Source: a phage. Taken from it: 64,000 bases of DNA. Shown piece after piece: positions 25,183 to 28,518 of the stretch. Numbering within the stretch: the first letter of the stretch is position 1; each line of letters opens with the position of its first letter. The stretch is taken from assembly GCA_014913405.1 (NCBI GenBank), contig GCA_014913405.1_3931.1; one strand, 5' to 3'. The notes beneath the pieces are model-generated. The model worked only from the letters and a program-made list of their open reading frames with translations. It did not search any database and was not told the DNA's origin. The translations under genes were made by a program, and so were the position numbers.

Positions 25183-25257
25183 GGGAGATTGACGGTAATT
25201 GGTAAACCTACCATCCTTAGAAGTTGGTGTTTGAGGGTTCGAATCCCTTGTCTCCTA
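25183..25257 (+). tRNA. tRNA with TAG anticodon (Leu-type) but short variable loop
   Basis: Manual fold, 75 nt. Confidence 0.45.
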
Positions 25258-25267
25258 CCAAATTAAT

Positions 25268-25340
25268 GCAGGTGTAGCAAAATGGTTATGCGGCTGACTC
25301 TTAATCAGTAAGACGATGGGTTCAATTCCCTCCACCTGTA
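25268..25340 (+). tRNA. tRNA-Lys(CTT)
   Basis: Manual fold; paralogous to Lys(TTT). Confidence 0.5.
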
Positions 25341-25349
25341 CCAAACATT

Positions 25350-25422
25350 GGGGATGTAGTTTACATGGTTAAAACATAAGTTTTGCAAACTTAAGTACAG
25401 GGTTCAATTCCCTGCTTCTCCA
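25350..25422 (+). tRNA. tRNA-Ala(TGC)
   Basis: Manual fold; G3-U70 identity pair present. Confidence 0.7.
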
Positions 25423-25431
25423 CCAATTAGT

Positions 25432-25503
25432 GCATCCATAGTTTAAACGGGAAAATTACAGTCTTCCAAACTGAGGTTGAGGGTTCGATTCCCTCTGGAT
25501 GCT
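25432..25503 (+). tRNA. tRNA-Gly(TCC)
   Basis: Manual cloverleaf. Confidence 0.65.
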
Positions 25504-25512
25504 CCAAACAAT

Positions 25513-25586
25513 GCTGCTTTCGTATAATTGGCTATTACACATCCCTTGTAAGGATGGAAATGCAGGTTCGAGTCCTGTGAGCAGCA
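25513..25586 (+). tRNA. tRNA-Thr(TGT)
   Basis: Manual cloverleaf, perfect anticodon stem. Confidence 0.7.
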
Positions 25587-25591
25587 CCAAT

Positions 25592-25681
25592 TCAGAGGTC
25601 AAGTGAAAGACCGCTTTGAGTCAACTGAAGACCGTAACAAATACCACGGAGTTGAGTTAGCGGCACAACTTCAGACCTCTT
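25592..25681 (+). ncRNA. Structured inter-tRNA element E5 (related to E1-E4)
   Basis: CAGAGGTC ... GACCTCT closing stem; internal CTGAAGACCGTAACAAATAC. Confidence 0.35.
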
Positions 25682-25685
25682 TCAT

Positions 25686-25757
25686 ACTCGCTTAGTTTAT
25701 ATGGTAAAACATCACCCTTACAAGATGAAGAAAAAGGTTCAAGTCCTTTAGTGAGTA
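25686..25757 (+). tRNA. tRNA-Val(TAC)
   Basis: Manual cloverleaf. Confidence 0.6.
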
Positions 25758-25761
25758 CCAT

Positions 25762-25836
25762 GTTCCAGTATCCCAATTGGCAGAGGATGCAAGCTCAAAC
25801 CTTGTATTAGTGACGGTTCGAATCCGTCTTGGAACA
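25762..25836 (+). tRNA. tRNA with CAA anticodon (Leu-type) but short variable loop
   Basis: Manual fold, 75 nt; Leu-like D-loop AATTGGCAGAG. Confidence 0.45.
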
Positions 25837-25844
25837 CCAATTTT

Positions 25845-25917
25845 GCAGGATTAGTTCAAATGGAAAGAGCAACAGTCTACGAAGCTGTTAATAGGGGTTC
25901 GAATCCCTTATCCTGCG
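25845..25917 (+). tRNA. tRNA-Arg(ACG)
   Basis: Manual cloverleaf, perfect acceptor. Confidence 0.7.
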
Positions 25918-25937
25918 CCAGATAAAAAGGTGATACT

Positions 25938-26180
25938 ATGCAAACATTAACAGTAGTTGAACATGAAAACTGTGAGAGTATTGAGTTTGTCAGGGTCATT
26001 GGTGTTGAACACCACATTTTCTTAAAAGTGGGATACTTATGTGACCCCGCTAGAGTAGAAAGATTTATACGTGATTGTTTTGGTGGTAGACATCTGAAGA
26101 GTGTTATTTTTGAGACAGTTTTACCAGAAGGTTTAGAAACGAATAATAACATTTACCTCCTTACGAGGATTAGACAATGA
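25938..26180 (+). CDS. Hypothetical protein embedded in tRNA array
   Basis: ORF with AAGGTGA SD. Confidence 0.5.
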   Translation: MQTLTVVEHENCESIEFVRVIGVEHHIFLKVGYLCDPARVERFIRDCFGGRHLKSVIFETVLPEGLETNNNIYLLTRIRQ

Positions 26181-26734
26181 GATACTTAAAGTATGCTTCA
26201 TGGATTTTCTTAGCTTTGTTAGAGCCATTTGCAGCAATCTTAGCAGTTATCTTAGCACCTTTTGTAGTTCCATTCTACAGTGAGAAGAAAGGACACTTAC
26301 CTTTCGGGTTCAGATGGATGGAGACATATGACAACCCAATTGATGGTGATGAAGGTCACGTTAAAAGATGGGCTAATATTAGATGGATTGGTAAACTAGG
26401 TGTCTACATGCAAAGAGTCGGATGGCTCTGGAGAAACAAAGCTTATAACTTCTCTTACCATGTATTAGGAAGAGATGTAAGAGATGTTACTAAGTGGAAA
26501 GGTAATATCAACGTAAGTTCTAACCCTGAAGATAATCAGACTGGTTATCTCCTAATGTGGAACAGTAATGCTTGGGGATTATTCGCTTTTATCCCATCAA
26601 TTAAAGTCTTCGGTAAACAGTTTTACTGGAGAATTTATGTTGGATGGAAACTTAAAAGTGTTGTCCCAGAAGAAAGAGCATTCTCAAGGGAAAGAGTTAT
26701 GTTGGCATTCTTTATTCATCCACTGAGAAAGTAA
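26177..26734 (+). CDS. Membrane protein (N-terminal TM helix, Trp-rich), embedded in tRNA array
   Basis: ORF coupled by ATGA overlap. Confidence 0.5.
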   Translation: MRYLKYASWIFLALLEPFAAILAVILAPFVVPFYSEKKGHLPFGFRWMETYDNPIDGDEGHVKRWANIRWIGKLGVYMQRVGWLWRNKAYNFSYHVLGRDVRDVTKWKGNINVSSNPEDNQTGYLLMWNSNAWGLFAFIPSIKVFGKQFYWRIYVGWKLKSVVPEERAFSRERVMLAFFIHPLRK

Positions 26735-26742
26735 AGATTTAA

Positions 26743-26815
26743 AGGGGATTAGTTTACAAGGTTAAAACCTCGGTCTTTGAAATCGAAGAAGTTGGTTCAA
26801 TTCCAACATCCCCCG
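26743..26815 (+). tRNA. tRNA-Gln(TTG)
   Basis: Manual fold; 1-72 mismatch. Confidence 0.6.
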
Positions 26816-26820
26816 CCAAT

Positions 26821-26896
26821 GCTCCATTACTCCAATTGGCAGAGAGGCCAGACTTAAAATCTGTGTTATGTATCGGTTCGAATCCGATATGGAGTA
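26821..26896 (+). tRNA. tRNA with TAA anticodon (Leu-type), 7-nt variable loop
   Basis: Manual fold, 76 nt. Confidence 0.45.
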
Positions 26897-26904
26897 CCAA
26901 ATTT

Positions 26905-26977
26905 AGCGGTATAGCATAACTGGCAATGCAGCAGTCTCTGAAGCTGTCCTATTAAGGTTCAAATCCTTATGCCGCTG
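26905..26977 (+). tRNA. tRNA-Gln(CTG)
   Basis: Manual cloverleaf. Confidence 0.6.
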
Positions 26978-27011
26978 CCACTTCTAAGGATTCTTACGAG
27001 AGTCCTTAAAT

Positions 27012-27085
27012 GTGGCCTTATCATAAATGGTAATGACCCATGCTGTGAACATGGTCTATACGGGTTCAAATCCCGTAGGTCACCC
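27012..27085 (+). tRNA. tRNA-His(GTG)
   Basis: Manual cloverleaf; discriminator C. Confidence 0.65.
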
Positions 27086-27092
27086 CAATTTA

Positions 27093-27167
27093 TAGTCCAA
27101 GTAGCTTATATGGTTAAAGCGCGTGTCTGAAAAACATGAGAAGAGGGTTCAAATCCCACTGGACTAC
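27093..27167 (+). tRNA. tRNA-Phe(GAA), atypical acceptor/D junction
   Basis: Manual fold. Confidence 0.5.
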
Positions 27168-27185
27168 CAATTTCAAAGGTGCTTA

Positions 27186-27920
27186 ATGAAAGAGATGACA
27201 GAACAAGGTAAGGAGATTTTCAATCTCTTAAAAACCGGTAAAGGGTTTTCTAACCCCCTTATTACTGGTGCAGCAGTTCTCGGTGGAACCGTAGCTGCCT
27301 CTACATCACTTGTAAGCTCTATTAGCTCTGTATCAGACCCTACAGTAAAGGATAAGCTTGTTGCTGCTGGACTTACAACAGTTCTGCTTAACAGCTTTAC
27401 CACGAGTCTGACAAGCACTACATCAACTACCAAAACACTAACAGATTACGGTCAAAAGTCCATTGATGAGTTTTCATCACGTATGCAGGTAGCAAAAGGT
27501 TACTCTAATGTTATGGGTGCAGCAGGTGAACAAGTTGGCTGTACACCATTTAGTGGTATTATGGGTGTTGCTACAGAGTATGGTCAAAAAACTATTGATA
27601 CGATTAACAGTGTACTAGATAGTGTTAATGGTGTGTTAAGTGACTTACAAGATGCTATTGACAAAGGTCTTGATACTATTTCTGATTTAGCTGAGCAAGC
27701 TGTTAGTAAGATTAATGAAGGTATTTCAAAAATTACAGCTTATGCAGATGAAGTTGTGCAGATGATTGAAGAAGAAGCTGCTCTTATTGCAGAGTACCTT
27801 AAAACGAATATCAATGGGTTCTTAGCAGGTATCTTACCAGACTGGTTTGATGATGCTTGTAAAACTGGTGTAATTGACACTATTGCAACACCAGAAATGA
27901 AGAACGCATTACAGAAATAA
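27186..27920 (+). CDS. Hypothetical protein embedded in tRNA array (start moved from track 27123, which lies inside tRNA-Phe)
   Basis: In-frame ATG at 27186 with AAAGGTG SD. Confidence 0.5.
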   Translation: MKEMTEQGKEIFNLLKTGKGFSNPLITGAAVLGGTVAASTSLVSSISSVSDPTVKDKLVAAGLTTVLLNSFTTSLTSTTSTTKTLTDYGQKSIDEFSSRMQVAKGYSNVMGAAGEQVGCTPFSGIMGVATEYGQKTIDTINSVLDSVNGVLSDLQDAIDKGLDTISDLAEQAVSKINEGISKITAYADEVVQMIEEEAALIAEYLKTNINGFLAGILPDWFDDACKTGVIDTIATPEMKNALQK

Positions 27921-27922
27921 AT

Positions 27923-28012
27923 GGAAGATTAACCCTAAAAGGTAAGGGAGCAGTTTGCTAAACTGCCAGTAGCTGAGAAATCGGTGTACCAGTTCAAGTC
28001 TGGTATCTTCCT
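27923..28012 (+). tRNA. tRNA-Ser(GCT), class II
   Basis: Manual fold, 90 nt, perfect acceptor and anticodon stems. Confidence 0.7.
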
Positions 28013-28019
28013 CCAATTT

Positions 28020-28092
28020 GAATCCGTGACAGAAACGGCTATGTGCCTGTCTGCAAAACAGGTTTATAAGGGTTCGAGTCCCTTCGGATTCT
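28020..28092 (+). tRNA. tRNA-Cys(GCA)
   Basis: Manual cloverleaf, standard 73 nt. Confidence 0.7.
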
Positions 28093-28136
28093 CCAAGTTA
28101 TTTTACTCTCTCTCAATTAAAATAATAATAATGCCC

Positions 28137-28196
28137 TGCTATAAGTATTCTTCCTTTCGCTACCGAAGAGTATTTTTAGACAGGGCTTTTTTACAG
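28137..28196 (+). terminator. Terminator at end of tRNA array
   Basis: GCCCTG...CAGGGC stem followed by T6. Confidence 0.6.
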
Positions 28197-28245
28197 AGTT
28201 ATACTTTATAGGAAGACTTATACAGTATGTCTCTGACGTACATTG

Positions 28246-28276
28246 TGGTTTCTCCTTGACGGTCTCTGTGCCGTCT
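28246..28276 (+). terminator. Second terminator
   Basis: GACGG-loop-CCGTC followed by T6. Confidence 0.6.
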
Positions 28277-28317
28277 TTTTTAAGGGGAAACATGATTAAC
28301 TATTTGGAGAAAACATA

Positions 28318-28518
28318 ATGAGCGAGACCGTTTATAAAGAACTTTATGAAGCTAATAAAAAGCTAGAATTTATGCAGAATACTATCATGGCAATTGCAGA
28401 CAGATTGTCTGTAGCAACAGGTATTGATATTAAAGAAGCATCTATGGATGCACTTCTTGATGCTGTTGATGCAAAGTTCGAAGTTAAGAAAGAAGAGACT
28501 GCTACAGACTCTGAATAA
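28318..28518 (+). CDS. Small helical protein upstream of terminase
   Basis: ORF 66 aa. Confidence 0.4.
   Translation: MSETVYKELYEANKKLEFMQNTIMAIADRLSVATGIDIKEASMDALLDAVDAKFEVKKEETATDSE

Follow-up and report, generated by a model that had tools for sequence, protein, structure and literature searches.

Three protein-coding genes within the tRNA array of a Felix O1-like phage: an apparently mobile gene pair and a core gene at the array border

Open reading frames (ORFs) interleaved with phage tRNA genes have long been known from T4, T5, and Felix O1. The stretch of phage DNA analysed here (64,000 nucleotides, contig GCA_014913405.1_3931.1 of assembly GCA_014913405.1; hereafter the window) raises the question of what such genes do and why they are found among tRNAs. 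On its plus strand, an array of 26 tRNA genes predicted by ARAGORN, with Rfam in agreement, extends from 22884 to 28095 and encloses three ORFs of the same orientation: ORF1 (25938-26180), ORF2 (26177-26734), and ORF3 (27186-27920). In the reading we favour, to which we give a probability of roughly 55%, all three are genuine genes, probably carried on the tRNA transcripts; ORF1 and ORF2 would form a mobile envelope cassette, and ORF3 would be a vertically inherited core gene with a role in the virion or its morphogenesis.

The first question is whether these ORFs are genes at all. The region 25600-28200 of the window shares 99.7% identity with Escherichia phage vB_EcoM-Ro111lw and 95-99% with about 180 other Felix O1-like phages, and on these identities the window is assigned to the genus Felixounavirus of the subfamily Ounavirinae. 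In the Ro111lw record, all three ORFs are annotated as coding sequences for hypothetical proteins among tRNA genes, with TerL encoded about 0.6 kb downstream. Each has a curated family match (ORF1 to phrog_14202, 1.2e-37; ORF2 to DUF7338, 4e-61; ORF3 to DUF7217, 2e-88). When six to seven related phages are compared, the substitutions in the three ORFs fall mostly at third codon positions, and the ratios of non-synonymous to synonymous substitution rates (dN/dS) against related phages are 0.23 for ORF1, 0.05-0.12 for ORF2, and 0.08-0.12 for ORF3. By these measures, ORF1-3 are real coding genes under purifying selection. A sequence-only reading of the window had already placed three ORFs at these positions, and the ORF calls, family matches, dN/dS values, and GenBank annotation bear it out; its statement that they have good ribosome-binding sites also agrees with the Shine-Dalgarno-like sequences found 5' of ORF1 (AAAGGTGA), ORF2 (GAGGA), and ORF3 (AAAGGTG). 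An alternative, longer ORF3 starting from a GTG codon at 27123 is unlikely, because it would overlap tRNA-Phe. The Rfam scan gave no further RNA family within ORF1-3. Weak matches to transfer-messenger RNA and to a plastid untranslated region elsewhere in the array were dismissed as chance, because they lie below the gathering thresholds and overlap tRNAs.

Are these genes expressed together with the tRNAs? They are tightly packed: tRNA-Arg(acg) ends at 25920, leaving 17 nucleotides (nt) before ORF1; the ORF1 stop and the ORF2 start share the sequence ATGA, a 4-nt overlap; ORF2 is followed by tRNA-Gln(ttg) after 8 nt; tRNA-Phe ends 16 nt before ORF3; and only 2 nt separate ORF3 from tRNA-Ser(gct), after which comes tRNA-Cys. 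Because ORF1-3 are co-oriented with the tRNAs and so closely packed among them, co-transcription is the natural reading and a probable one. Directly 3' of tRNA-Cys, a long hairpin followed by T6 (28133-28192, plus strand, fold energy -25.4 kcal/mol) precedes a candidate intrinsic terminator, a GC-rich hairpin also followed by T6 (GACGG-TCTCTGTG-CCGTC-TTTTTT, 28258-28281, plus strand, z -3.86). Both are conserved in Felix O1, VpaE1, and HP1, and no convincing intrinsic terminator was found inside the array before them; they probably close the tRNA-array transcription unit ahead of a 66-amino-acid (aa) ORF and the packaging genes. Neither hairpin is present in the terminator table of the Felix O1 paper. 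As for initiation, the best sigma-70-like site found by scanning the array (TTGACA-17-TATAGT, 24293-24321, plus strand) corresponds to "P45" in the Felix O1 promoter list (PMC3185647), and further sigma-70-like TTGACA sites lie 5' of the array at 22738 and 22828. These sites are candidates only, since the total of promoter-like matches in the region does not exceed the expectation from shuffled sequence. In Felix O1, the direct orthologue of ORF2 is ORF48 and that of ORF3 is ORF49, and reverse transcription PCR (RT-PCR) found that the transcripts of both genes peak at 5 min, like those of the array genes ORF45 and ORF46 (PMC3185647, Table 3). The same 5-minute class also holds capsid and tail genes (PMC3185647), a point that counts against early array expression; the temporal resolution is therefore doubtful and the timing is weak evidence.

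The 80-aa product of ORF1 is predicted to be soluble, and no Pfam or Protein Data Bank (PDB) match was obtained for it; the PHROG 14202 profile spans its full length (residues 1-80). ORF1 occurs in only 70 phage records. Its alleles form three divergent groups (identity of about 100%, 73%, and 41%), and it invariably lies directly 5' of a DUF7338 gene. It can be present or absent between otherwise near-identical genomes, and is missing from Felix O1 and VpaE1, where a tRNA abuts ORF2 instead. Av-05, an unrelated phage (Avunavirus), has a phrog_14202 member (3.4e-34) with only 22% identity to ORF1; it overlaps, again by 4 nt, a DUF7338 gene whose product is 78% identical to ORF2. Judging from this patchy distribution, the divergence of the alleles, and the Av-05 pair, ORF1 appears to be a fast-evolving and dispensable partner of ORF2, to which it would be translationally coupled.

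ORF2 itself is found far more widely. A tblastn search recovered it in 600 phage records, including Felixounavirus, Mooglevirus, T4-like genera, jumbo phages, and Otagovirus, with 55-61% identity in the T4-like genera RB16/RB43, Slopekvirus, Karamvirus, and Gelderlandvirus. In the Hafnia phage SarahDanielle, the ORF2 product is 88% identical, compared with 68% for TerL, 33% for the small ORF, and 22% for ORF3, and the nucleotide match starts exactly at the ORF2 ATG. Because ORF2 is so much better conserved than TerL and the edge of the match coincides with the start codon, a recent horizontal exchange is indicated. Downstream of the DUF7338 gene, the transferred segment loses its nucleotide homology within the SarahDanielle tRNA-Ser(tga) (L012, 4067-4158), whose anticodon stem-loop is nearly identical to that of the tRNA-Gln(ttg) of the window (26743-26818), the loops differing by a one-base shift (CTTTGAAA vs CTTGAAAA). 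Together with the Av-05 pair, the records point to phrog_14202 plus DUF7338 as a mobile two-gene accessory cassette of patchy distribution, which would move between unrelated virulent phages and settle in tRNA arrays. The sequence-only reading had proposed accessory functions for all three genes; for ORF1 and ORF2, patchy and mobile as they are, this holds, and for ORF3, a syntenic core gene of the Ounavirinae, it does not.

What kind of protein does ORF2 encode? Its 185 aa match Pfam DUF7338 (PF24027) over residues 1-184 with 206.3 bits (cut-off 27), and also phrog_2143 (1e-79). The description of this product as a Trp-rich membrane protein, given earlier from the letters alone, agrees with its 11 Trp residues and with a single hydrophobic N-terminal segment (residues 7-33, Kyte-Doolittle 2.38); the isoelectric point is 9.95. 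An exhaustive profile search for DUF7338 returned 874 clusters at E <=1e-3, and because nearly all of the members are stand-alone proteins of 160-200 aa, domain fusions are uninformative on function. Positions invariant in the family include T50, D52, G57, and the motif W83-L-W85-R86-N87-x-x-Y90. AlphaFold gives a confident model (mean predicted local distance difference test, or pLDDT, 94.9) with a helix at residues 2-33, short helices, and then a four- to five-stranded antiparallel sheet, which amounts to one N-terminal transmembrane (TM) helix joined to an alpha/beta domain that is basic and rich in Trp. When ORF1-3 and the profiles of their families were searched by sequence against the PDB, nothing meaningful emerged, with no solved relative for the ORF2 domain, and a search of the model against BFVD returned only unannotated family members, one of them auto-named "Envelope protein". 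From the model, we infer that ORF2 would be anchored in the inner membrane through its N-terminal helix.

The genomic surroundings of DUF7338 genes were surveyed at 78 IMG/VR loci and in annotated records. Flanking tRNAs are present in 23 of the 23 Ounavirinae-type loci, among them the Hafnia phage, where the tRNAs are different from those of the window. At T4-like loci, a tRNA lies 70-1100 nt upstream of the gene (23 of 24 loci), and in Karamvirus PG7 the gene is within a 19-tRNA array; the Av-05 pair resides in an array of 14 tRNAs. In Otagovirus phiPsa397, the gene is 19 nt 3' of tRNA-Gln, and in a group of DNA-polymerase-A-region contigs (L082/L085/L092) it comes 17-267 nt after a tRNA-Arg/Gly/Met mini-array. 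At loci free of tRNAs, lysis genes are often its neighbours. The gene order in L020 is tail fibre, 193-aa ORF, DUF7338, 96-aa TM/coiled-coil protein, GH108 endolysin, and Rz-like spanin; L025 has tail fibre, 149-aa ORF, DUF7338, 114-aa TM/coiled-coil protein, M15 peptidase, and holin-like and spanin-like ORFs; and L027 and L028 have holin, lysozyme, DUF2570, LysC, DUF7338, and terminase. In the T4-like phage S16, DUF7338 is followed by a 71-aa ORF and a T4 e-type lysozyme gene. It should be mentioned that a 245-aa neighbour of DUF7338 in another contig (L018) is not a relative of ORF3.

These contexts suggest that ORF2 would insert where modules meet and, in virulent phages rich in tRNAs, within the array, where residence would give the cassette early and strong expression without a promoter of its own. 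The product would then act early at the cell envelope, and our best guess is a role in lysis timing or of the superinfection-exclusion type; it would be neither a virion component nor the holin of the phage. Several observations weigh against this part of the reading. The charges flanking the helix are alike on both sides, and the topology is thus ambiguous. Adjacency to a lysis cassette is seen in three of seven metagenomic contexts and in S16, the borders of modules are classic sites for the insertion of unrelated "morons", and the homologues of jumbo phages, with several others, are near neither tRNAs nor lysis genes. A stronger version would have the cassette specialised for tRNA arrays, expressed by riding on tRNA precursor transcripts and being excised from them, and spread by recombination within arrays, delivering an inner-membrane envelope effector of new fold for lysis timing or superinfection exclusion; we regard this version as unlikely.

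Known small membrane proteins offer points of comparison. T4 Imm, Sp, RI, and the holin T are, like ORF2, small, membrane-anchored, and early-placed, and the single transmembrane domain (TMD) with a globular domain resembles T and RI; in the T4-like S16, DUF7338 is near both the e-type lysozyme and the tRNA region. In contrast, no homology between ORF2 and these proteins was detected, and DUF7338 co-exists with their functions in T4-like genomes. The moron bor of lambda, which lies 3' of Rz/Rz1, is another parallel: in the lambdoid contig L027, DUF7338 fills precisely this bor-like slot, between the spanins and the terminase, and like morons generally it is stand-alone, envelope-targeted as we read it, placed at tail-fibre/lysis borders (L020 and L025), and passed between unrelated phages. 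Unlike Bor, to which it has no relation in sequence or fold, ORF2 is in a virulent phage, within a tRNA array, and has no evident promoter or terminator of its own.

Could ORF2 be the missing holin of the Felix O1-like phages? No recognised holin-endolysin cassette is present in Felix O1 (PMC3185647), some GenBank records label the ORF2 family "holin", and an N-terminal TMD followed by a domain of about 150 aa fits the architecture of the T4 holin T, with its single TMD and large C-terminal domain. In L020 and L025, moreover, DUF7338 heads the lysis cassette. It is in these same contexts, however, that other small TM proteins make better holin candidates, and in L027 the gene co-occurs with a canonical class II holin; T4-like phages, in which DUF7338 also occurs, encode gene t. 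ORF2 matches no Pfam holin family and, according to the tblastn organism counts and the locus of Erwinia phage M7, is absent from the Erwinia Ounavirinae. An early, tRNA-linked position would hardly suit a lethal hole-former, and no lysis gene is near ORF2 in the window. We consider the holin explanation very unlikely.

The sequence-only reading had also suggested that genes co-transcribed with phage tRNAs may be anti-defence genes, and ORF1-3, especially ORF1 and ORF2, would on this explanation block host immunity early in infection. Their early, tRNA-linked placement and the patchiness and mobility of ORF1 and ORF2 are in keeping with it, and the neighbourhood is of a counter-defence kind: phage tRNAs are believed to act against tRNA nucleases, and directly upstream of the tRNAs in Bas63 is gp130, a Ro60-like protein described in the Bas63 report (PMC11482910) as a counter to the ppl and hhe defence systems. 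The text on the knockout screen in that report names g77, g79, g80, g84, g85, and g130 as the counters, and the array ORFs are unnamed there (PMC11482910). In our searches, which included no dedicated anti-defence library, PADLOC, NCBIfam, and Pfam showed nothing beyond DUFs in support of the suggestion; PADLOC had no match for ORF1 or ORF2 and, for ORF3, only weak coiled-coil-type matches to ZorA (E 4e-4 to 0.09). The strong conservation of ORF2 (dN/dS 0.05-0.12) and its recurrence beside lysis cassettes in temperate-type phages argue in the same direction, as does the finding that ORF3 is a core gene with homologues detected in virions. An anti-defence function thus seems decidedly improbable, and the envelope cassette is the reading we keep for ORF1 and ORF2.

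ORF3 has a different history. Its product was described at first as Ser/Thr-rich and 245 aa long; the composition holds (50 Ser plus Thr), and the length is 244 aa. It matches Pfam DUF7217 (PF23854) over residues 8-243 with 296.4 bits (cut-off 29), and phrog_2114 (9e-111), and is predicted to be an acidic (isoelectric point 4.4), all-helical bundle. Across the family, 21 positions are invariant, C119 and C225 among them. A homologue is present in every Ounavirinae lineage examined, and in Felix O1, VpaE1, HP1, DR094, the Hafnia phage, and Erwinia phage M7 the gene stands at the 3' border of the array, 5' of the small ORF and the terminase gene. In M7, no tRNA lies 3' of it, and tRNA-Ser(gct) is upstream of the gene rather than downstream; because the M7 gene lacks a following tRNA, the apparent embedding of ORF3 is best seen as a border effect, in which the array would have expanded around its boundary with the packaging genes. 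Homologues with 26-28% identity occur across the Ackermannviridae, with the major capsid gene on one side, the gp3/UvsY genes on the other, and away from tRNAs.

Several functions considered for ORF3 were rejected. GTP binding, suggested by a match to phrog_289, was dropped because only the C-terminal half of that profile is covered, and the Ackermannviridae have a separate small "GTP-binding" gene two genes upstream. A small terminase or a scaffold is excluded by the Ackermannviridae too, which encode both separately, with DUF7217 elsewhere in the genome. A membrane protein was rejected since the Ackermannviridae homologues have not conserved the hydrophobic stretch (residues 25-45), which the prediction places within the bundle. 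As for a tape measure, only weak PHROG matches (2e-5 to 7e-3) to internal helical parts were obtained, and Felix O1 and Bas63 have another protein, of 80 kDa, as their tape measure (Gp67 and gp17, respectively).

The evidence for a virion role comes from two full-length homologues of the same Pfam family, with the same length and invariant Cys pair. ORF129 of LIMEstone1 (27% identity to ORF3, E 5e-29) was listed from mass spectrometry (MS), on 2 peptides and 18% coverage, as a 25.03-kDa "confirmed structural protein", and a predicted late promoter lies upstream of it; for gp166 of Sajous1 (26% identity, E 6e-29), 8 spectra were obtained from virions purified on caesium chloride (CsCl), equal to the count for the tail completion protein. 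Unlike ORF3, these genes are placed away from tRNAs, between the major capsid and gp3/UvsY genes. Homology to structural phage proteins, which the sequence-only reading had set down as what would speak against its proposal, was thus found in part, for ORF3 only and by way of these Ackermannviridae proteins. By analogy with them, ORF3 may be a low-copy virion-associated protein or a morphogenesis or assembly protein.

Inventories from closer relatives stand against such a role. In Table S1 of VpaE1, ORF47 is called "hypothetical" and the MS-detected proteins "structural"; the Felix O1 shotgun table does not list gp49 (PMC3185647); the Sf14 virion table has no ORF3 homologue; and among the 22 gene products modelled in the cryo-electron microscopy structure of Bas63, of which only Hex-Dec is encoded outside the structural module, the ORF3 homologue is not included. 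The contrary explanation makes ORF3 a non-structural early protein, for instance a host-takeover protein or a membrane-interacting bundle, and takes the Ackermannviridae detections as carry-over of an abundant intracellular protein. Besides the missing entries, its position inside the tRNA transcription unit and 5' of the conserved terminators, the 5-minute RT-PCR class in Felix O1, and the low MS signals in the relatives (2 peptides and 8 spectra) are consistent with this. Against it are the independent detections in two preparations of Ackermannviridae virions purified by CsCl or gel, the late promoter and structural-region placement of the gene there, its strict synteny beside the packaging genes across the Ounavirinae, and the hydrophobic N-terminal stretch that the Ackermannviridae homologues have not kept. 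We regard the non-structural explanation as a tenable minority view, and a core virion or morphogenesis gene as the better description of ORF3.

One published claim concerns the Felix O1 orthologue directly: "Gp49" was reported as structural, possibly the sheath, from a 51-kDa gel band (PMC3185647). This sole structural claim for the orthologue is internally inconsistent. Felix O1 ORF49, the gene before the terminase, has a predicted product of 25.6 kDa, and gp63 (48.9 kDa), which is in the shotgun table, fits the band better; the claim is unreliable and looks like a propagated numbering error. The Bas63 map also contains a helical C3 density (trimeric, two-helix) at the tip of the puncture apparatus with no assigned protein. 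That ORF3 supplies this density, capping the puncture apparatus in Bas63 and Felix O1, is speculative and less likely than a cassette specialised for tRNA arrays.

How does this array compare with those described before? The tRNA regions of T4 (tRNA.2-tRNA.4), T5, and Felix O1 (ORF44-49, including HNH endonucleases) likewise have small ORFs among co-oriented tRNAs; these ORFs are for the most part dispensable, differ among close relatives, and are presumed to be early genes. ORF1-3 differ in that none is a homing endonuclease and in that ORF3 is conserved rather than variable. Hundreds of deposited genomes already contain these genes, two of which are the basis of Pfam DUFs, and current understanding is not overturned. 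What is new is the evidence that phrog_14202 and DUF7338 form a mobile cassette, the recurrence of DUF7338 in tRNA arrays and beside lysis cassettes, its confident fold without a solved relative, and the clarified virion evidence for DUF7217. The labels "holin" and "putative membrane protein" that circulate for ORF2 and ORF3 in GenBank are unsupported, and the present reading corrects them. Because DUF7338 is a large family with a confident fold, no solved relative, and such recurrent surroundings, it would be a sensible subject for a simple experiment in Bas63 or another tractable Felixounavirus.

Some further features of the locus deserve mention. The gap between tRNA-Gly and tRNA-Thr at 25506-25513 is only 6 nt in the window, and both Ro111lw and Felix O1 hold a 414-nt HNH endonuclease gene there; the presence or absence of a homing endonuclease in the array thus sets the window apart from its closest relative, Ro111lw. 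The 66-aa ORF directly 5' of TerL (28318-28518) has 98-100% identity within Felixounavirus, 54% in HP1, and 33% in the Hafnia phage, and no Pfam match; no small terminase has been recognised in the Felix O1-like phages. Directly 5' of the array, a gene at 21304-22719 encodes a 471-aa protein with Pfam DUF2828 and DUF7788, called "RNA-binding protein" in Felix O1 (ORF42); it corresponds to Bas63 gp130 by position only. Finally, the spacer of about 95 nt between tRNA-Thr and tRNA-Val (25590-25685) shares 82% identity over 88 nt with a spacer of the Av-05 array (L051, 4655-4739) and is conserved in Felix O1 and HP1 too. It has no match in Rfam, and its predicted fold is a long terminal stem enclosing an inner hairpin (-30 kcal/mol, z -3.46). 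On visual inspection, the outer stem in Av-05 seems to be preserved through changed bases in a shifted register, but an automatic count finds no compensatory pair. The spacer may represent a structured small RNA; with a Ro60-like gene 5' of the array, this could be of the Y-RNA type.

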